Part shown: piece by piece, positions 2,659 to 40,878 of the stretch
How positions within the stretch are numbered: the first letter of the stretch is position 1
Layout of the letters: each line of letters begins with the position of its first letter
Source: a bacterium
GTDB taxonomy: Bacteria > Patescibacteriota > Patescibacteriia > JACQRZ01
NCBI GenBank assembly: GCA_023246095.1
Contig: JAHFJA010000001.1
Location: 1,062 to 65,061 of the forward strand
DNA length: 64,000 nt
Reading direction: 5' to 3'
Position numbers and translations under genes: made by a program
The notes under the pieces: model-generated
What the model was told of the DNA's origin: nothing
Databases searched by the model: none
What the model saw: the letters and a program-made list of their open reading frames with translations, nothing else

Positions 2659-3114
2659 TTACCTATCTTTCATCAATTTCTCAATTGATTCATAGTGCTT
2701 AGTCTGCGAAACCTGACGTTCTGAGGATTTACGGTGGATAATATGGAGGTCCATAGTGCTCACTATCCTCTTCCATCCGATCGGTTGCTCGTGAATAGTT
2801 CCTTGATAACGAATTTTTTTATTGTTTTTGAAAAACCTGATTTGCCGATCAGGATATGCTGAAGTTTGTTTACCGTCAATATAGTTTTTACGGGGAAACG
2901 CAAAGGAGTCCGCTTTGATATTATTTTCGGTAAAATGCCGAAGCTCCTTCAGAAGCTTTTCCTCGTATACTTCATCTGCATCCATAACTAAAATCCAATC
3001 TCCTTTGGCGCGCTTCAGACTGATATTCCTTTGTTGAGAAAAATCCTCTTTCCACGGACGTACTATGATGTTTGCTCCAAATTTTTTTGCAATATCTACT
3101 GTTTTATCTTTAGT
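2659..3114 (-). pseudogene. 5'-truncated family-2 glycosyltransferase (GT2) remnant.
   Basis: Minus-strand frame reads TKDKTVDIAKKFGANIIVRPWKEDFSQQRNISLKRAKGDWILVMDADEV... (DxD motif). An in-frame stop lies immediately 5' at 3115-3117. No IPTYNE-type N-terminal Rossmann segment in any frame upstream. Confidence 0.55.
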
Positions 3115-3232
3115 TTACCGTACCAAATATTCATCAGACTCACAAGAACTCAAGCATTCCTTTTGCCTTCCCCGGCTAAAACAAACAAAAAGCACCGCAT
3201 ATTACTGGGTGCCTATTTATTCATCAAACGTT

Positions 3233-3649
3233 TTATTTCAAAAGCGCTATCGCTACCACACCGGCGGCAACTCCAGCCCACTGCTTGAGTGTAAGCCCTA
3301 CTCCGAGAATAGGGATACTCAATAGTGAAGCTGCCAATACGGAGCTGATTGAGACTAACGCTACAAACACACCGGCGGGAATACTCGGATCAGTAACCTT
3401 TTCCGAATATAGATAGCATCCTATCCCATTGAGTAGTCCTGCAAACACCAATATTAGAATTGCATTGCGAGAAATAGCCTGATGTCCAAATTGACCAGAT
3501 ACCAGCGACCAAATCGCAAGCGTACCGAAAGTTACAGCAAAGACGATTGTTCCCGTCCATGCGCCTCCAACCCCTGAAAAACGCGCAATGATAGGCCATG
3601 CGAAGCATGAACCGATTAATACCGCCCAACCAACAGTAGTTATACCCAT
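3233..3649 (-). CDS. Small multi-TM membrane protein, EamA/DMT-like.
   Basis: 138 aa, 4-5 predicted TM helices rich in G/A/L/V. Confidence 0.4.
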   Translation of the reverse strand: MGITTVGWAVLIGSCFAWPIIARFSGVGGAWTGTIVFAVTFGTLAIWSLVSGQFGHQAISRNAILILVFAGLLNGIGCYLYSEKVTDPSIPAGVFVALVSISSVLAASLLSIPILGVGLTLKQWAGVAAGVVAIALLK

Positions 3650-3668
3650 TTTTCTCCTCCTAAAAGCT

Positions 3669-4166
3669 TTACATTATAGAACCGTCATCTTCAAAATCAT
3701 TTGCGGAAAGTCGTCGAACCGCAATGCGAAGACATTTTTTATCAAAACCTTTCGTTAGCGGATGCAAAGTAAGCTGGGCAACACCATTATCTGTTTTCAG
3801 AACTACCACGCATAGCTCCCCGTTTCCATTAATGATTTTTTTACCAGGATTCACTAACCAGTGATCTTTAAATAGTTTTTCGGGGATTTGTAGCATTGTT
3901 GGTCCATCAGGCCAGTGTGACCACGAGGTATCATTAAACCAAGTGTCGCATTGTTCAGTCGTGTGGATTTCTATATCTATAGGGATAGCTTTGTAAATCA
4001 GTATTCCCAAGGACGGATCTCCGCAAAAATTTTCTTCGTTGATAGAGGGATCTATCACCTTCTTTGAGTCCTTGATTTGATCAAGAAACGGTAAGGTGTA
4101 ATCCACCCTAAACACTCTAGGGTCACTCCTAGAAACCTTCACTGGTCTTGTATCTACATCGAACAT
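3669..4166 (-). CDS. Hypothetical protein.
   Basis: 165-aa ORF with no recognised motif. Confidence 0.4.
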   Translation of the reverse strand: MFDVDTRPVKVSRSDPRVFRVDYTLPFLDQIKDSKKVIDPSINEENFCGDPSLGILIYKAIPIDIEIHTTEQCDTWFNDTSWSHWPDGPTMLQIPEKLFKDHWLVNPGKKIINGNGELCVVVLKTDNGVAQLTLHPLTKGFDKKCLRIAVRRLSANDFEDDGSIM

Positions 4167-27629: not shown

Positions 27630-29399
27630 CTATTTCAGAGGAAAATTAAGAATAGTACTAAACGGTGTATCTTTTTTATATTTATCCACCGAAGAAAATA
27701 ATGCATTCAAATGAGTCTGTTTTTCAATCCCCCTCATGAGAAATGGTTTCATCGCGTGAAAACCAATAGGTGACGGCACAAGATCAAGTCCCGTATCAGT
27801 AAATTTACCTGATACAATCAATCCATACTGGGTGGTCGCCGGGGTTACTTGGTCAAAGATAAAATTACCGAGCGAATATATAATAGGACGTCCATGATAG
27901 GCTTCCATGTCTTGCACAACATGCGGGTGAGTACCTATTATGGCGTCAGCACCGGCGTCAATCCACGAATGCGCCAGGCTCTCTTGTAGTGGAGAATGTT
28001 TGAGTGCATACTCAATACCCCAATGAGGGTATATGAGCACCTTATTTGTCGGATCTTTTTTTATTGTCTTAATCTGGTCAATTAAATCTTTCTGTAAAAA
28101 AGTACTTTCATTGATGGCAAGAACGCCGATAAGGTATAAATGATATCCTTGTCCATCGACGTGCACAATCTTGATATCCTTTGTTGCGCGAGGATCACCA
28201 AACGACATAACGTTGGCATTGCGCAACACCTGACGAGAAAGCTCGAGTCCTTTTTGTTCATCATTGAGTGCATGATTATTCGCAAGACTCACAGCCCGTA
28301 AATGGAGATACTTCAACGCCGCAAGGGCTTGTTTTGGAAAAATAAATGTGAGATCACTCGCGACTTTTTTTGAAATAGAAGTTTGATCGGTGATCGCCCC
28401 TTCGAGATTGGCAAATGGCGCATCAACACCCCAAAACACTCGATCACCTAGCTCCGCAAATAGTGATTGATAATTCGAGCCAAATTTTGTTGCCACACCC
28501 CGTGCCAGCATGATATCCCCCGCCACAGTAAACGTTACGGAGTTATCAGGAACAGTAGGTTTACCTGTCTCATACCAACCAAAAACATGGGTGGTTGTTT
28601 CAATGTCGGGATTATTAAGAAGTACACCGCTATTTGTGTGACCATAGAGATTAAAATGCTTTGTATTGTGCAATGTCGCCCAACGAGAAAGTAAATAGAG
28701 CGCTTGAGGTGAGTCAACTTCCGTTTTGTTCAGTAGTGTGTCCCCATCAACATTTTCCAAGGCCCGGACAGAAACAGTATCGTGAATGTCAGATAACGCG
28801 GCTGGTTGATAATGAGAAAAATCGACCGAAGCAATCATCAGACACGAGGGGCATGTCGTATTCAGAGATATATCAAGTGAGTCAATGGTAGTTTGGGGTG
28901 CATCCTGCCTGACAATAATAGGTACGATCTGCGCGTGGGGAAATACTGCATGAATATCGGCAAGCACATAACGTATACCATGATCATCTGTCACATCTTT
29001 GGGCTGGTCATCAGCGATATGATCGCGCAACAATGCCTCAACAGTGATTTTGTCCGGTTCCATTGTTCCTTTGGCAAGCATCCATGTCTTTGTCGTTGTC
29101 TGAATAGCTGCCTTTCCTGCACTAAAATGATTCGGCGATACAATGATAACAGTCGGAGGCTCTGATTGAGCAAAAAATGCATCTCGCACGTGAGCCAAGA
29201 ACTCTTGGCGTTTTATTTTCACAATATCGTGATGAGGAATCACGATACCCGAAATACCGACGGACTGGACCGACGGTGATAGAATAATAGCAGTTGGCGA
29301 TACACCAACATTCCCTCCCCACAAATGAGTGAAGAGGGAAAAGATGGCAAAAAGTTCTTTCACGAAATTATTTTTGTAATAACCCGCCCCATTCGACAA
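27630..29399 (-). CDS. Fusion protein: N-terminal MEMO1/AmmeMemoRadiSam-B-like domain + C-terminal CapA/PGA_cap metallophosphatase domain.
   Basis: N-half: VIPHHD, IVSPNHF, ASVDFSHY. C-half: VAGDIMLARGV, ANLEGAIT, SLANNHALN, GADAIIGTHPHVVQ, SLGNFIFDQ. Confidence 0.5.
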   Translation of the reverse strand: MSNGAGYYKNNFVKELFAIFSLFTHLWGGNVGVSPTAIILSPSVQSVGISGIVIPHHDIVKIKRQEFLAHVRDAFFAQSEPPTVIIVSPNHFSAGKAAIQTTTKTWMLAKGTMEPDKITVEALLRDHIADDQPKDVTDDHGIRYVLADIHAVFPHAQIVPIIVRQDAPQTTIDSLDISLNTTCPSCLMIASVDFSHYQPAALSDIHDTVSVRALENVDGDTLLNKTEVDSPQALYLLSRWATLHNTKHFNLYGHTNSGVLLNNPDIETTTHVFGWYETGKPTVPDNSVTFTVAGDIMLARGVATKFGSNYQSLFAELGDRVFWGVDAPFANLEGAITDQTSISKKVASDLTFIFPKQALAALKYLHLRAVSLANNHALNDEQKGLELSRQVLRNANVMSFGDPRATKDIKIVHVDGQGYHLYLIGVLAINESTFLQKDLIDQIKTIKKDPTNKVLIYPHWGIEYALKHSPLQESLAHSWIDAGADAIIGTHPHVVQDMEAYHGRPIIYSLGNFIFDQVTPATTQYGLIVSGKFTDTGLDLVPSPIGFHAMKPFLMRGIEKQTHLNALFSSVDKYKKDTPFSTILNFPLK

Positions 29400-31514: not shown

Positions 31515-31853
31515 TTAGGCGATCGGAATTTGCTTCAAAAATTCAAGCGTCGCTTTTACAGAAAGATTATCGGTATGCAAAAAATGAAGTTTATTACCCC
31601 ATTGCTCTGCCAAGGGTGTAACAAATTCATCCGCCCAAGAAGGTGTAAGTACTTTAACACCTTCAAAATCAAGTTCAATCATGTCTGCTTCATCCTTTGA
31701 AGGAAATATATATGCCTGCGCGGACAGATACGCCTCTTTTCCTGATGGACGGGAAGAAAGAAAATCACCAAAATTTTTCATTATAATTTTCATAGATATC
31801 AAAACGTTAATATGGCAACCATACCCTTCAATCCATCGTCCGCCATTGTGCAT
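31515..31853 (-). CDS. STAS-like DUF4325-type small protein (likely partner of the adjacent GHKL kinase).
   Basis: ELDFEGVKVLTPSWADEF motif. Probable true start at MKIIMKNF. Confidence 0.4.
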   Translation of the reverse strand: MHNGGRWIEGYGCHINVLISMKIIMKNFGDFLSSRPSGKEAYLSAQAYIFPSKDEADMIELDFEGVKVLTPSWADEFVTPLAEQWGNKLHFLHTDNLSVKATLEFLKQIPIA

Positions 31854-32374
31854 GCAGACGCACTGGCGTCAATCACATACGTACCACAACCTGAACGATA
31901 TTCTAACTTCCATTGTTGTTCTTGCACAACCTTTGCCACGAGTTTTAAACCATTGCCTCGTCGTTCTGGGGCACGGCCAGAAAGAGTCTCAGTAAAAGCC
32001 ACCGTCAACGCTTCGCAATCATCGGCAATACTGGGTCGAACCTGACGCAGAGTAGCGAGAATTCCTTGGCCTCGGTCAGCAATTACCACCATCCTTTGAT
32101 CGGCATTATATACAAAATACGCACCTCTTTCATCGCGCCAATTACCAAGATTGTGATCAAACGTATTATTCCCTATCTCACCTATCACAAGTCCAAGAAG
32201 ATATGCATTCTCGCCAATGGAACGATCACTGGCACACTCAATAACTAATTTATCCGCTCTTGCTTGAAAAATATCCCGCGTAGGACAATGCTCGTCAGGC
32301 AACAAAAAACCCACACCATTATCCATAGAAACCCAATCAAAGGCTTTTTGAATTTGCGGAATCAGTTCTTTCAT
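31799..32374 (-). CDS. GHKL/HATPase_c-type ATP-binding protein (anti-sigma-factor/serine-kinase-like).
   Basis: IGEIGNNTFDHN (N-box), ADRGQGI (G1), GNGLK (G2). Confidence 0.5.
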   Translation of the reverse strand: MKELIPQIQKAFDWVSMDNGVGFLLPDEHCPTRDIFQARADKLVIECASDRSIGENAYLLGLVIGEIGNNTFDHNLGNWRDERGAYFVYNADQRMVVIADRGQGILATLRQVRPSIADDCEALTVAFTETLSGRAPERRGNGLKLVAKVVQEQQWKLEYRSGCGTYVIDASASACTMADDGLKGMVAILTF

Positions 32375-32488
32375 ATATGGTCAATCTATCACAGAGCTCC
32401 CATAATTTCAAGCAATAACCAGAATAAATGGGTCGGAAATAGGGGGTTTTAAGCAACTAACAGCCAATGAACCTAATTTGTACACGCT

Positions 32489-32812
32489 TTATGTAATGTC
32501 CTTTTGTATTGTGCCAAAAGAGAATTCTGGGATGTGAACTTTTGCAGGTATTTCGTAGTAAGACCCTTCCACTCTTTGAATATATGCGTATCGAAGTAAT
32601 CGGCCGTACTTATCCTTATCTCCTTGAGTATGATCGCTTTCAAGGCGCACTTTTTTATTCAACAGCATCTCTTTTGCCTTGTTTGAAGCCTCCTTGCCAA
32701 AACATTGGACAGTCTTGCGAGGGTCAACCGTCTCTGGTGTGTCGATACCGATAGAACGTGGAAGTCGAAAACATACCCCCAAAACCGAGCGCAAGCGCCA
32801 GCGGAGTGACAA
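32489..32812 (-). CDS. Thermonuclease (SNase-like) domain protein, probably frameshifted at its N-terminus.
   Basis: LPRSIGIDTPE...YGRLLRY core. A signal-peptide-like MMNQIVTPLALALGFGGMFS is in a different frame immediately upstream, at a G5 run at 32767-32771. Confidence 0.5.
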   Translation of the reverse strand: MSLRWRLRSVLGVCFRLPRSIGIDTPETVDPRKTVQCFGKEASNKAKEMLLNKKVRLESDHTQGDKDKYGRLLRYAYIQRVEGSYYEIPAKVHIPEFSFGTIQKDIT

Positions 32813-32914
32813 TTTGATTCATCATAAGGTAGAGAGATTAACCCCCATTCTGCATTATACGGTGTATCTGATCGATACTTCTTTATACCCACTTCCAATA
32901 TAACACTCCTCTCC

Positions 32915-34209: not shown

Positions 34210-34872
34210 TTAGATTTGGATAAAGTATCCAACACAACGAGAAACCTTTGCTACTTCCGTTCCACTGAGGGTGGTATTTCTATTTGTGAGCCATTTAGAG
34301 AGCTTATCTTTACCAAAGACTTTTTCAATACACTTCTTGGCACCTGATTTTTGACTGTTATAAAACGAATAGAACGTATCGCTTTGAGAAATTGCCGTGC
34401 TCACCGGCTTGATCATATCCGTAACAGAGCTTTTTTTATTTTTTTTGCTAGTCGCACTGGTTTTTTTTACTGACGTCGACAACACAGTCTGAACACCAAC
34501 TCCAAGTTTCTTTCCTTCACGTAATAACAATTTCCATGTGGTCGGTCCCACATATCCATAACCAGTACTATCAGCTGTTCCTTGACACGCAATATCGTGT
34601 GCACACTGAAAACGCTTGAGTGCCGCAAGAGTGCCAGAGCTGAATGTGTCGGTTTCATGCCCCGGTGACCCTTCACCTGTTCGTGAAATAATAAACCCAT
34701 CGTTATTTAGTATTTTTTGCAGCACCATGACCTCAGAACCTCGTGTACCTATACCCATTCCTGACGAGGCGGCATATACATTTTGCCCAAGTGCTATCGC
34801 ACAGATTATGACAATAATAACCAATAAACGGCCCATATAGAGTAGTAATAATTTCACCATACAGTCTATCAC
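34210..34872 (-). CDS. Secreted protein with a peptidoglycan-binding (PG_binding_1-like) domain.
   Basis: Signal or anchor. GSEVMVLQKILNNDGF...GTLAALKRFQ. Confidence 0.5.
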   Translation of the reverse strand: MIDCMVKLLLLYMGRLLVIIVIICAIALGQNVYAASSGMGIGTRGSEVMVLQKILNNDGFIISRTGEGSPGHETDTFSSGTLAALKRFQCAHDIACQGTADSTGYGYVGPTTWKLLLREGKKLGVGVQTVLSTSVKKTSATSKKNKKSSVTDMIKPVSTAISQSDTFYSFYNSQKSGAKKCIEKVFGKDKLSKWLTNRNTTLSGTEVAKVSRCVGYFIQI

Positions 34873-34944: not shown

Positions 34945-35907
34945 GTGCGCTATAATAACTACATGAAAAAGATTAGTCTTACAGCCATAGTGACCGCGAG
35001 TATCATTCTACTTATGGGTGTAAGTTTTCTCTATCTCAAGAAAAAAGAAATCGCATCGCCAAACAACATTGCCTGTACCCAAGAAGCAAAGCAATGTCCC
35101 GATGGTAGTTATGTTGGTCGTACAGGGAAAAATTGCGAATTTACTGATTGCCCCGCTATAGCACCCAAAACAATACCACCAACCCCGCAACAACCACCCT
35201 CAACACCGCCCCCTACACCAGTGCCAACACCAGTGCCCTTACCTAAACCAGCCCCAACACCAACACCTCCCCCAAGCGGAGTAAGTGAATGCACATCAGA
35301 CAAAGACTGTCCCTCGTCGCTCGTTTGTCACGCCGGCACGTGTACTGAACCGATAACTGCTCAGTGTAGTGGACCTGACGACACGAGCTGTTCCCCTGGT
35401 TATCGCTGTATTCAGAGCTGCGGCCCTCCTGTTGCAAGAATAGGAGACCCTCCCCCACCATATTATTGTGAACTCGAAGAAGTAGCCTCAAAACCTCGCA
35501 ACTGTCCTATTTGTTTAGCCTCAAACACAGAAGTTGCTACACCAACCGGTAATCATAATGTCAAAGATATAAAAATGGGAATGCTTATATGGTCGCTTAA
35601 CAAAAATGGAGAAAAGGTTGCAAGTACCGTAATAAAAATATCACACACTCCTGTTCCAAGAACACATCGAGTAATACATCTTACACTTTCAGATAAAAGA
35701 GAAGTATGGGTATCACCTAATCATCCGACTGTAGATGGCAGAACGATTCAAGAACTACAGAAGGGAGACCTGTATGATAGATCATACGTTCAATCGACAG
35801 AGCTGATTCCTTATTGGGATACCAATACCTACGACATCCTATCAGATAGCGATACTGGTTATTACTGGGCGAATGGAATTTTATTAGGAAGCACACTTAA
35901 AAAATAA
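34945..35907 (+). CDS. Membrane-anchored Cys/Pro-rich protein with a C-terminal Hint (Hedgehog/intein-like) domain.
   Basis: TM anchor. PTPxP linker. Cys-rich modules. Hint block CLASNTEVATPTG...VSPNHP...YWANGILLGS. Confidence 0.55.
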   Translation: MRYNNYMKKISLTAIVTASIILLMGVSFLYLKKKEIASPNNIACTQEAKQCPDGSYVGRTGKNCEFTDCPAIAPKTIPPTPQQPPSTPPPTPVPTPVPLPKPAPTPTPPPSGVSECTSDKDCPSSLVCHAGTCTEPITAQCSGPDDTSCSPGYRCIQSCGPPVARIGDPPPPYYCELEEVASKPRNCPICLASNTEVATPTGNHNVKDIKMGMLIWSLNKNGEKVASTVIKISHTPVPRTHRVIHLTLSDKREVWVSPNHPTVDGRTIQELQKGDLYDRSYVQSTELIPYWDTNTYDILSDSDTGYYWANGILLGSTLKK

Positions 35908-36028: not shown

Positions 36029-36064
36029 TAAAAAAATTCTACTGTTTTTACAGTAGAATTTTCA
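36029..36064. terminator. Bidirectional rho-independent terminator between convergent genes.
   Basis: Perfect 10-bp stem aattctactg / cagtagaatt with loop ttttta. A-run 5' and T-run 3'. Confidence 0.7.
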
Positions 36065-39069: not shown

Positions 39070-40878
39070 TTAATGCGGCGGAAGCATTGAGAGCACTGAC
39101 TCCGCTGCAAAATGTTCTGCATTTTTTTTCGTACCAGCAGAACAGGGGTTTGATTGATATCGTTTTTCAGGCGTAGAGACAGTCACCACAATAGTAAAAA
39201 TCGACCGATGTGGAGATCCTTTTTGTGAAATCACTTCGTACGCAGGACGGTTCCATTTTTTCTGTTGACATAATTCCTCCAATCGACCCTTAAAGTTGTC
39301 GGATGGCGGTGTGTTAAGTGATGGTAAAACTTCTGGAATCAAAAAATCATTTTTATTGTCTTCTTTTTCACTTTCAACACCAATTATTGTACCGATTAAA
39401 CTCACGGCGGCAGATTGCCGAGAATTTTTTAATGTATTTCCAATACACACCTTCGAACTGCACATATTGTCATTAAAAACTATACTTGCCATACTGGAAA
39501 ATCCTCCAACAACCTCATATGATTCGTATTCTAAATTGGCAAAGGGGATAGATTTATCCTGACAAGCCATTACGAGTGTCGAGACGGCTTTTTCTTTATG
39601 ATTCATCAAATGCGAAAATATCTCACTACGTATACGTTTCCACACTAAAGAATCAAATTGCAAGGTTTTAAACAATATGAAGTAAATATCTTGCACAGGC
39701 AAATCTCCTGTGTTAAGACGCCTAATTACTTCATCTTCCAGAGGTTGAGGTGGCTCAACGTTTTCGCATGCAACACGGACTACCCTATGAAACTCAACGG
39801 TACTTGCATCCTGAATTTGACTATCCTGTAAGAGCTGTTCTCCCTGCTCGCGCCTCTTAAATGCAAAATGTTCGTCTTTTTTCATGCGTTCCTGATCCAT
39901 CAACGTATTCAGATTTATCGCAAGTGTATCCAATTCTTCCGGTCTATAGGGAGTAGGATCATTTTGCAGAACTGCAAGCAAAATCCTTTGATTTACCAAA
40001 TCAGCATACCTACGGATAGGTGATGTAAAATGGCAATACACAGGAAGGTTTAACGCAAAATGGCCACGTACAAAAGAATCATAAGTCGCTCTGTTCAGAA
40101 TCAGACTGAATCGATGGCGCAAAGTCTCCGGATTCGATATAACAGAGCAAGCCCCCATGGATGCCAAATCTTCTCTCAGTATATCTCGATCTGACGCCAC
40201 AACATGTGCTGTGTGATTTCTATACAATGCTTGTGTTCTTTTCTGTACTAAATATTCTGCCACCATTTGATTGGTCAGAATCATAAACTCCTGAATAATC
40301 TGATATGCATTTATGGAATCAGGGGTATTTAGACGAATTAGTTGTCCATCCTCATTGCACACCCATCCATCCTGCATATCATACATCACAAGTGCTCCAG
40401 ATTCAGAACGTTTTCGTGCTAATCCTTTTGCAAGGGTATTCGCCACATGCAACATTGCATAGAACTCAAATGTAGTATCCTTAAGACTCTCATTCACTTG
40501 TTTATAATTTAACTTTGCCACACTCTTTCCATGTGTTTGCTGTATATCTACAGAACGACACACAAAATCTTTATCAATACCCATAGTCACCTGAAAAACG
40601 CGCTTTGAGTCGTCAGGTAGTAAACTTAACTCTCCCTCGGATAGTTCCCTTGGAAGCATTGGACTACTCCCAGCTGAAGAATACCTTGTGAACCCCTTTC
40701 TTGAAGCTTTCATGTCAATCAATGTCCCCTTCTTCACAGCAAAAGCAACATTCGCAATGGAGACGGAAAGACAATAGCGCCATCCGTCCACATTTTCTTC
40801 AACCCAGATAGCATCATCAAGATCTTTTGACGACTCACCGTCTATAGTTACCCCAATAACATTTACGTCTTCTGTCAT
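39070..40878 (-). CDS. RNase II/R-family (RNB domain) exoribonuclease with two tandem C-terminal dsRBDs; no N-terminal cold-shock or S1 domains.
   Basis: RNB motifs DLDDAIWVE and HFTSPIRRYADLVNQR. dsRBD-1 ends GNTLKNSRQSAAVSLIGTI. dsRBD-2 is LCQQKKWNRPAYEVISQKGSPHRSIFTIVVTV...GTKKNAEHFAAESVLSML. Confidence 0.7.
   Translation of the reverse strand: MTEDVNVIGVTIDGESSKDLDDAIWVEENVDGWRYCLSVSIANVAFAVKKGTLIDMKASRKGFTRYSSAGSSPMLPRELSEGELSLLPDDSKRVFQVTMGIDKDFVCRSVDIQQTHGKSVAKLNYKQVNESLKDTTFEFYAMLHVANTLAKGLARKRSESGALVMYDMQDGWVCNEDGQLIRLNTPDSINAYQIIQEFMILTNQMVAEYLVQKRTQALYRNHTAHVVASDRDILREDLASMGACSVISNPETLRHRFSLILNRATYDSFVRGHFALNLPVYCHFTSPIRRYADLVNQRILLAVLQNDPTPYRPEELDTLAINLNTLMDQERMKKDEHFAFKRREQGEQLLQDSQIQDASTVEFHRVVRVACENVEPPQPLEDEVIRRLNTGDLPVQDIYFILFKTLQFDSLVWKRIRSEIFSHLMNHKEKAVSTLVMACQDKSIPFANLEYESYEVVGGFSSMASIVFNDNMCSSKVCIGNTLKNSRQSAAVSLIGTIIGVESEKEDNKNDFLIPEVLPSLNTPPSDNFKGRLEELCQQKKWNRPAYEVISQKGSPHRSIFTIVVTVSTPEKRYQSNPCSAGTKKNAEHFAAESVLSMLPPH

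Follow-up and report, generated by a model that had tools for sequence, protein, structure and literature searches.

An anchored, cysteine-rich Patescibacteria protein of a large family, ending in a Hint domain with a probable Hedgehog-style self-cleaving function

Locus and gene

The window analysed here is a 64,000-nucleotide stretch of contig JAHFJA010000001.1 (positions 1,062 to 65,061 of the forward strand; assembly GCA_023246095.1) from a bacterium of the Patescibacteriota lineage JACQRZ01. Its subject is a plus-strand open reading frame (ORF), 34945..35907, whose product combines an N-terminal anchor and a Cys-rich ectodomain with a C-terminal Hint (Hedgehog/intein-type) domain. An earlier reading, made from the letters without database searches (hereafter the sequence-only reading), had placed such a protein here; the ORF is present, and the strings quoted from it, CLASNTEVATPTG, VSPNHP and YWANGILLGS, were all found in its translation. 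The longest reading frame opens at GTG 34945. The public gene call (P0001, 314 amino acids, 100% identical) has its Met at ATG 34963, and homologue N-termini align with that Met; since both begin there, ATG 34963 is preferred as the likely start of a 314-residue protein, and residues are numbered from it. Judged by the number of homologues, far beyond chance, the ORF is a real gene. The protein contains 15 Cys, and only KK follows the conserved GSTL motif before the stop codon. Searching the window with the protein (tblastn) revealed no second copy of the gene. The features of the gene and its product are as follows.

34963..35907, plus strand: gene for the 314-residue Hint protein, including the stop codon (gene call P0001, homologue alignment)
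34963..35049, plus strand: N-terminal signal anchor, residues 1-29, MKK followed by about 20 hydrophobic residues and KKKE (helix 6-29 in the AlphaFold2 (AF2) model)
35068..35154, plus strand: Cys module 1, residues 36-64, four Cys, ACTxEAKQCPDGSYVGRTGxNCEFxxCP (homologue alignment)
35155..35286, plus strand: Pro/Thr-rich linker, residues 65-108 (predicted local distance difference test, pLDDT, 49-66)
35287..35346, plus strand: small four-Cys module, residues 109-128, ECTSDKDCPSSLVCHAGTC (homologue alignment)
35359..35511, plus strand: Cys module 2, residues 133-183, ending KPRNCPI (invariant alignment columns)
35503..35514, plus strand: junction motif Cys181-Pro182-Ile183/Cys184, with the predicted scissile bond between Ile183 and Cys184
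35512..35898, plus strand: Hint domain, residues 184-312 (AF2, Foldseek, family-profile matches)
35713..35724, plus strand: block B Ser251-Pro-Asn-His254, equivalent of the TxxH motif (S251 and H254 100% conserved)
35833..35835, plus strand: block F Asp291, in TYDIL (100% conserved; aligned to YDLL of the Cat intein)
35887..35898, plus strand: C-terminal motif Gly309-Ser310-Thr311-Leu312, in the register of intein His-Asn/+1

Upstream of the start codon, a perfect TATAAT lies at 34951..34956, seven bases 5' of ATG 34963, and no Shine-Dalgarno sequence is obvious in the interval. A promoter scan found no -35 element paired with this hexamer and did not decide the start codon. On this sequence, the mRNA might be leaderless or nearly so.

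Evidence for the Hint fold

The sequence-only reading had proposed a Pfam search with PF13403 (Hint_2) and an AlphaFold model as tests of its Hint assignment. In the Pfam search, the window protein scored 21.6 bits (E=3e-4) against Hint_2, under the gathering cut-off of 28.4 bits and over profile positions 1-83 of 147 only; the match to NCBIfam TIGR01445 (intein_Nterm) was likewise below threshold, with 23.6 bits against a cut-off of 24.5. Some relatives pass the Hint_2 cut-off (P0163 with 39.2 bits, P0173 with 36.4), and 57 of 67 long family members match it at E<=1e-3. In the AF2 model of the full-length protein, built from a 35-sequence alignment, the mean pLDDT was 84 and reached 82-98 over residues 181-310, where a Hint fold is confidently predicted. 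Comparison of the model with the PDB by Foldseek gave 62 matches at E<=1e-3, and the 50 matches listed were all inteins, bacterial intein-like (BIL) domains or Hedgehog. A Foldseek probability of 1.00 was obtained for the MchDnaB-1, gp41-1 and Npu/Ssp DnaB inteins (template modelling (TM) score normalised to the target 0.75-0.77), the Clostridium thermocellum BIL 2lwy (TM 0.77), Tetrahymena BIL2 and Hedgehog 1at0 (TM 0.68). As a single sequence, the Hint region found no matches in the PDB by phmmer, and a family profile was needed. The profile built from the Hint region of the family retrieved the Cat consensus intein (6dsl, 1.4e-7), the gp41-1 intein (6qaz, 2.2e-5, nearly end to end) and the BIL 2lwy (0.01).

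The C-terminal 131 residues are thus confirmed as a Hint domain by the predicted structure with its Foldseek matches and by the family profile, the single-sequence Pfam and NCBIfam matches being suggestive. The proposal of a Hint fold of about 130 residues starting at the Cys of CLAS holds. Its assignment to Hint_2 fares less well, as the match is partial and below threshold and the nearest solved relatives by profile are mini-inteins.

Conservation of the catalytic positions

Conservation was counted over 262 family sequences with a full-length Hint match, taken from clusters at 50-90% identity and aligned to the family hidden Markov model (HMM). Seven positions are identical in all of them: C184, L185, S251, H254, T289, D291 and Y301. 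These include every residue assigned to the first Hint step, the N-to-S acyl shift, namely Cys184, Ser251-x-x-His254 and Asp291 (in TYDLL in the family alignment). The SPNH of block B aligns with SDNH of inteins and with T69PAH72 of Hedgehog, by which the VSPNHP motif picked out earlier is recognised as the TxxH equivalent.

The positions serving the C-terminal half of intein chemistry have a different composition. The position of the intein block F His is occupied by Thr298 (97%), that of the penultimate His by Gly309 (variable, G in 66%), that of the terminal Asn by Ser310 (98%) and the +1 position by Thr311 (98%, the remaining 2% being Ser), followed by Leu312 (97%). The register of the last four positions was taken from the gp41-1 alignment, in which ...YwANGILL of the family is set against ...LFYANDILT; this alignment stops two residues short of the end of the 128-residue gp41-1 chain, and these two residues we take to be His-Asn. 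Furthermore, the chain ends at most 19 residues past the Hint domain in 259 of the 262 members, usually one to three residues after STL, so that the remark that nothing follows the Hint domain applies across the family. On these alignments, the machinery that forms the thioester is kept, that for Asn cyclisation is lost and there is no C-extein. Asparagine cyclisation, and hence splicing or C-terminal cleavage, is by this sequence pattern impossible.

The junction before the domain is conserved as well, with C181 in 93% of members, P182 in 98% and I183 in 91%, ahead of the invariant C184 and L185. The approximately 7% of members that have no Cys at -3 have one at -5 or about -10. Mean pairwise identity within the Hint domain is 58%, matching that of the cargo in front of it, and conservation extends well past the catalytic residues. 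Altogether, a very large Patescibacteria family of Hint domains without the terminal His-Asn, with a CPxC junction and a GSTL terminus, is what distinguishes these sequences; the Cys-Pro-Ile-Cys junction and the Ser310/Thr311 pair at the second-nucleophile positions are additions to the sequence-only reading.

N-terminal anchor and Cys-rich ectodomain

The description of the product as a membrane-anchored Cys/Pro-rich protein is borne out by the N-terminal hydrophobic helix, the 15 Cys and the Pro-rich linker at residues 65-108. A hydrophobic N-terminal segment is present in 235 of the 260 family members that start with Met (about 90%), 18 of them with a lipobox-like motif, and in some homologues a lipobox (xxGC) replaces the plain anchor.

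Two conserved Cys modules follow, neither of which has a Pfam match. Module 1 (pattern ACTxEAKQCPDGSYVGRTGPNCEF..CP) shows 71% mean pairwise identity within the subfamily, and module 2 (pattern C.GP.D.SCP.GY.CIQ.CGPPV.R...PPPPY.CE....KPR.CPIC) 58%. In the homologue alignment, the invariant Cys of module 2 are C135, C143, C149, C153, C169 and C181. The linker between the modules varies in length and content among homologues, many of which have an extra Cys module instead, and the small module at residues 109-128 gives a weak match to Dumpy_DPY (E=0.041). The model of the ectodomain (residues 30-183) has a mean pLDDT of 81.8; values of about 90-94 are reached over residues 111-150 in the full-length model and over module 2 in the ectodomain-only model. 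With the ectodomain model as query, Foldseek retrieved nothing from the PDB below E=2; the sole likeness, a non-significant one, was that of a 25-28-residue piece to squash knottin trypsin inhibitors, and the structural matches of the small module at residues 109-128 were likewise knottin-like and non-significant.

The module 1 pattern, in the form C..[ED]A[KM].CPDGS.V.R.GP.C.F..CP, also occurs in 10 copies in P0160 (682 amino acids) and in seven copies in P0184 (703 amino acids), neither of which terminates in the ...ANGIL.GSTL Hint end of the family. By its sequence distribution, module 1 is a free-standing Cys-rich repeat that has no Pfam model.

Predicted processing and alternative explanations

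The reading judged probable, though by no means assured, is that the Hint domain is a Hedgehog-style self-cleaving C-terminal module which cuts between Ile183 and Cys184. A Hedgehog-like layout is indicated because the residues of the first step are kept, the His-Asn is lost and the Hint domain is terminal, whereas splicing and release of a downstream part are excluded because the Asn-cyclisation residues and a C-extein are absent. The sequence-only reading had likewise called the layout Hedgehog-like, neither intein-like nor toxin-releasing, and the terminal position of the domain in 259 of 262 members upholds it. It had also supposed that cleavage would release the N-terminal Cys-rich part. 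This has to be reversed: the ectodomain carries its own anchor or lipobox, and since the N-terminal part is membrane-anchored, it is the Hint domain that would be shed while the ectodomain stays on the cell.

The predicted course of processing would begin with export through the Sec pathway, after which the N-terminal helix would tether the protein and the Cys modules would fold outside the cell. Cys184, aided by Ser251, His254 and Asp291, would attack the carbonyl of Ile183 in an N-to-S acyl shift, so that a thioester takes the place of the peptide bond between Ile183 and Cys184. From there the acyl group could be handed to the hydroxyl of Ser310 or Thr311, in the manner of Hedgehog Cys143 or the intein +1 residue. 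A nucleophile, water by default, would resolve the thioester or ester, so that the Hint domain of about 14.5 kDa detaches and the ectodomain is left on the membrane with a new C-terminus ending in Cys-Pro-Ile. The 129-residue domain would act once, on itself. The conserved C143 of Hedgehog was recently shown to be required; it accepts the acyl group of Cys1, giving a branched intermediate, and has been described as equivalent to the intein +1 nucleophile (PMC12054796). When the Drosophila Hedgehog sequence printed there, VVNSVAASCYAV, is aligned with the family sequence WANGILLGSTLK, Ser310 falls opposite C143 and Thr311 opposite the intein +1 residue; this register is at motif level (NSVAASCYA against NGILLGSTL), the HMM alignment to Hedgehog covering blocks A-B only. 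The oxy-ester relay through Ser310/Thr311 is, by this analogy, a hypothesis.

Several points weigh against self-cleavage of this kind. If the bond is merely hydrolysed, it is hard to see what shedding a domain from an already anchored protein would achieve, and a Hint domain as conserved as the cargo, past its catalytic residues, suggests a role beyond self-removal. As part of a disulfide-rich protein outside the cytoplasm, the thiol of Cys184 may become oxidised, for instance to Cys181. The matching of Ser310/Thr311 to C143 of Hedgehog and the +1 residue of inteins depends on motif alignment, and the literature searched offered nothing that joins the Hint domain with Patescibacteria, the candidate phyla radiation (CPR) or Saccharibacteria.

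The first two of these points bear on a different outcome of the same chemistry, in which the domain is a sorting or ligation module and the thioester, or the Ser310/Thr311 ester, is passed to a specific acceptor, so that the ectodomain becomes covalently fixed by its C-terminus. The acceptor could be an amine of peptidoglycan, a lipid or glycan of the envelope, or a molecule on the surface of a host cell, by analogy with the cholesteroylation of Hedgehog and with sortase anchoring. One strongly conserved terminal domain behind diverse cargo is the pattern of a C-terminal sorting domain, the conservation of the Hint domain extends far past its catalytic residues, hydroxyls are conserved at the second-nucleophile positions that precede transfer in Hedgehog, and plain shedding seems pointless for a cargo that is N-terminally anchored already; a weak link to peptidoglycan also recurs, with PG_binding_1 fused in P0119 and P0128 and adjacent both in the window and at a second family locus (L022). 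However, there is no adduct-recognition region comparable to the sterol-recognition region (SRR) of Hedgehog, most members ending one to three residues past GSTL, no conserved partner gene was found, and the acceptor is purely hypothetical. Transfer is judged an unlikely outcome, yet a serious alternative to hydrolysis. In its most elaborate form, with the thioester at ...Cys-Pro-Ile, a Ser310/Thr311 relay and the C-terminus of the ectodomain joined to an acceptor in the envelope or on a host surface, the domain would be a sortase-independent, self-powered anchoring device for many Patescibacteria surface proteins, possibly gated by the redox state of CPxC; this proposal is speculative to much the same degree. 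Somewhat less doubtful, yet still tentative, is a redox-gated switch, in which a Cys181-Cys184 disulfide (CPxC) locks the nucleophile and cleavage follows reduction by a thiol source or on contact with a host. The strong conservation of C181, P182 and C184 fits such a switch, and precedents exist: a disulfide between Cys(-3) and Cys1 is a proven trap in a DnaE intein (PDB 3nzm, 'N-extein in redox trap', which is itself one of the fold matches of the model), disulfides of active-site Cys render splicing redox-sensitive (PMC4031507), and the disulfide of Hedgehog C1 with C143 must be reduced by protein disulfide isomerase (PMC12054796). Cys parity argues the other way: there are 14 Cys besides Cys184, six of them, including C181, invariant in module 2, therefore C181 can pair inside that module and Cys184 is left as a single free thiol. 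In addition, the members with a Cys at -5 or about -10, and not at -3, do not fit a CPxC lock.

Two further explanations were considered. A Hint domain retained for binding or folding, as part of an adhesin or scaffold, would agree with the well-conserved surface residues and with the loss of the residues for C-terminal cleavage, but complete conservation of Cys1, the block B Ser and His and the block F Asp in 262 sequences is hard to explain without catalysis, and this explanation is accordingly improbable. Very improbable indeed is the view of the domain as an intein, whether true or decayed, or as a pre-toxin Hint from which a C-terminal toxin is set free. Its attractions are that the nearest solved sequence relatives are mini-inteins, that Thr311 occupies the +1 position and that three relatives have 97-355 residues past the Hint domain, two of them ending in a dockerin (P0163, P0173). 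Nearly all members (259 of 262), however, have no C-extein, and neither a terminal Asn, a penultimate His, a homing endonuclease nor an interrupted host protein was seen; nor was there a match to PT-HINT or a toxin domain. The pre-toxin Hint family PF07591 gave no match in the window protein and was not among the 15 Pfam families matched in the 67 long members. Given the terminal Hint and the pattern over 262 sequences, the intein and toxin-release readings were both rejected.

Comparison with known Hint systems

Hedgehog and the Hog proteins resemble the family in having an exported N-terminal domain followed by a C-terminal Hint domain, with many N-terminal domains sharing one Hint as in the nematode Hog families, and in retaining Cys1 and the block B (T/S)xxH without His-Asn, so that the N-terminal junction alone can be cut. 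There are also differences. By motif register, the C143 position holds Ser310 (98%), a conserved residue that could act as a nucleophile, and not Cys; Hedgehog continues into the SRR after the Hint domain, whereas the window protein ends in GSTLKK; and the junction is Pro-Ile/Cys-Leu here and Gly/Cys-Phe in Hedgehog. Asp46 of Hedgehog has no counterpart in the alignment, where an intein-type block F Asp is found instead, and the structural match to Hedgehog is weaker than that to mini-inteins (TM 0.68 against 0.76). By sequence, the family would be Hog-like in its logic yet outside the Hog family.

The best fold and profile matches are mini-inteins (gp41-1 6qaz, Cat 6dsl and DnaB/DnaE), with which the family is in register over blocks A, B and F and the ANGIL segment of block G. 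Unlike mini-inteins, the family has no C-extein, terminal Asn, penultimate His or block F His, and it is not inserted in a host protein. Two class 1 intein features are kept, Thr311 in the +1 register (98%) and Asp291 of block F (100%), although the role of Thr311 as a nucleophile is a prediction. In redox-trapped inteins such as the Ssp DnaE intein with CPGC (PDB 3nzm), Cys1 is the second Cys of C-P-x-C and the first lies at -3, as here; the CPxC of this family is natural, extracytoplasmic and family-wide, and its Cys parity speaks against a C181-C184 disulfide.

BIL domains are usually internal, flanked by protein sequence at either end. Like them, the Hint domain of this family belongs to a secreted bacterial protein and is predicted to cleave and not to splice, and the C. 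thermocellum BIL 2lwy is close in both fold (TM 0.77) and profile (E 0.01). Type A BIL domains have a C-terminal His-Asn without a +1 nucleophile (PMC4031507). As the family ends in Gly-Ser-Thr and has no His-Asn, identity with type A was ruled out. Type B BIL domains have been described as cleaving at their junctions and as having no similarity to intein block G (PMC4031507), and the block-G-like ANGIL of the family would set it apart from them as they are described.

Both Burglin 2008 (PMC2362128) and Dassa & Pietrokovski noted a group of bacterial proteins that are secreted and have a Hint-like domain at the C-terminus; this group, compared through its printed alignment, appears to be the nearest described kind. 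Its members (Myxococcus MXAN_6253, Photorhabdus plu1731 and others) have a C-terminal Hint-like domain, signal peptides and a conserved upstream Cys, as here, and they end in ...AGGxLVGD, likewise with no His-Asn and with a Gly before the last conserved polar residue. They differ in the junction (Gly/Ser-Cys before Ile/Met-Ala-Glu-Gly-Thr, against Cys-Pro-Ile before Cys-Leu-Ala-Ser-Asn-Thr here), in the ending (...VGD... and about 10-20 residues, against GSTL and 1-3 residues here) and in their taxa, which are Proteobacteria and Myxococcota and not Patescibacteria.

Family size, taxonomic range and architectures

In a word-indexed search, 396 homologues reached E<=1e-3, and the best of those that were not identical had an E-value of 1e-107. 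An exhaustive profile search, covering 1.84 billion representatives of clusters at 50% identity, yielded 725 cluster representatives at E<=1e-30, 3,395 at E<=1e-10 and 10,217 at E<=1e-3. With 725 representatives at the strictest of these thresholds, and similar proteins reported in 2008 (PMC2362128), the statement that such an arrangement is uncommon in bacteria is wrong for the Patescibacteria lineage. Some members are already named 'Hint domain-containing protein' by NCBI. The named records are mostly from Patescibacteria (Buchanan-, Doudna-, Davies-, Uhr-, Giovannoni- and Saccharibacteria, or 'Patescibacteria group'), with a few metagenome-assembled genome records under the unconfirmed labels Gemmataceae, Binatia, Polyangiaceae and 'uncultured Gammaproteobacteria'. 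The GC content of family loci ranges from 32 to 68%. One record labelled Polyangiaceae (L028, CBDCTZ010000005.1, 638,820 bp) carries a 41%-identical member and has 65% GC in the stretch that was fetched; either the family reaches beyond Patescibacteria or the label is wrong.

The domains found in front of the Hint domain in the 67 long members are Dockerin_1 (9), Kazal (3), DUF5667 (3), PG_binding_1 (2), PKD (2), Kunitz (1) and Gmad2 (1). An internal Hint domain of the family type is rare, being seen in P0163 (525 amino acids), P0173 (671) and P0149 (338), where 202, 355 and 97 residues follow it; P0163 and P0173 end in Dockerin_1. P0230 (338 amino acids) has tandem Hint domains, the first a canonical intein/PT-HINT-like domain ending in ...GIFVHN, with a family-type Cys1 three residues on. 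Tandem paralogues also occur, as three adjacent copies on a 3.4-kb contig (L025:302-3335) and as two copies elsewhere (L015:671-1114 and 2948-3961), and the family thus expands locally in some genomes.

Patescibacteria, also known as CPR bacteria, form a large and mostly uncultured branch, and many of its members are attached to other cells. The surface proteins of these bacteria, on which such a lifestyle centrally depends, are almost entirely uncharacterised. In hundreds to thousands of sequence clusters of this family, varied extracellular domains all end in a common Hint domain that retains exactly the chemistry of the first step and has lost exactly the C-terminal chemistry of inteins. 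Were the domain to shed itself and nothing else, Hedgehog-style processing would gain a new bacterial example; if it transfers its cargo to an acceptor, it would represent a new mechanism of protein anchoring and a natural bacterial model for the origin of Hedgehog autoprocessing from intein-like ancestors, a link raised in PMC12054796. As an anchoring device, it would be a bacterial counterpart, perhaps a forerunner, of Hedgehog lipidation. Protein engineers working with intein thioesters might also take an interest in so compact a domain, 129 residues long, whose CPxC junction is natural. The scale of the family, its sorting-domain-like architecture and the parallel to the revised Hedgehog mechanism make it worth experiments, even though its chemistry was predictable from known Hint biology.

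Neighbouring genes and other features of the window

Two further features flank the gene.

34210..34872, minus strand: secreted protein with PG_binding_1, divergent neighbour (PF01471, 25.7 bits against a cut-off of 23)
36032..36063, no strand: hairpin with a 14-bp stem, flanked by T/A runs on either side and lying where the Hint gene and an 815-residue helicase gene converge

The peptidoglycan-binding neighbour to which the sequence-only reading drew attention is therefore present and above threshold. It is not a conserved partner, as no homologue of it lies beside other family members at 31 loci. An all-against-all comparison of flanking ORFs at the 31 loci, Pfam annotation at five loci and Pfam searches on candidate clusters yielded no conserved partner gene. 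A neighbour cluster found at seven loci was rejected because it is heterogeneous (NAGPA, fn3, PG_binding and others), and Peptidase_C39_2 (three distinct loci) and a YGGT-like membrane protein (four loci) were both too weak as candidates. What is left is a loose peptidoglycan theme, with the PG_binding_1 domain seen as a fusion in P0119 and P0128 and, at L022, in the product of the upstream gene. The hairpin is, by its sequence and position, probably a shared bidirectional terminator.

Some other observations were made in the window. The 107-residue ORF at 32489..32812 (minus strand) encodes the first half of a staphylococcal nuclease domain (PF00565 positions 5-59 of 107, E=5e-12), and the region around it (approximately 32400-32900) is crowded with short overlapping ORFs; from its sequence, truncation or decay of a thermonuclease gene is the probable explanation. 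The ORF at 31799..32374 (minus strand, 191 amino acids) has no Pfam match; its motifs ...NNTFDHN..., ...DRGQGI... and ...GNGLK..., judged by eye, are reminiscent of a histidine-kinase-like ATPase or anti-sigma-factor kinase. At 27630..29399 (minus strand), a single ORF joins Memo-like and PGA_cap (capsule synthesis, CapA-type) domains. At 39070..40878 (minus strand), an exoribonuclease with an RNB domain (RNase II/R type) has a double-stranded-RNA-binding motif (dsrm) at its C-terminus, a combination that is, to our knowledge, uncommon.

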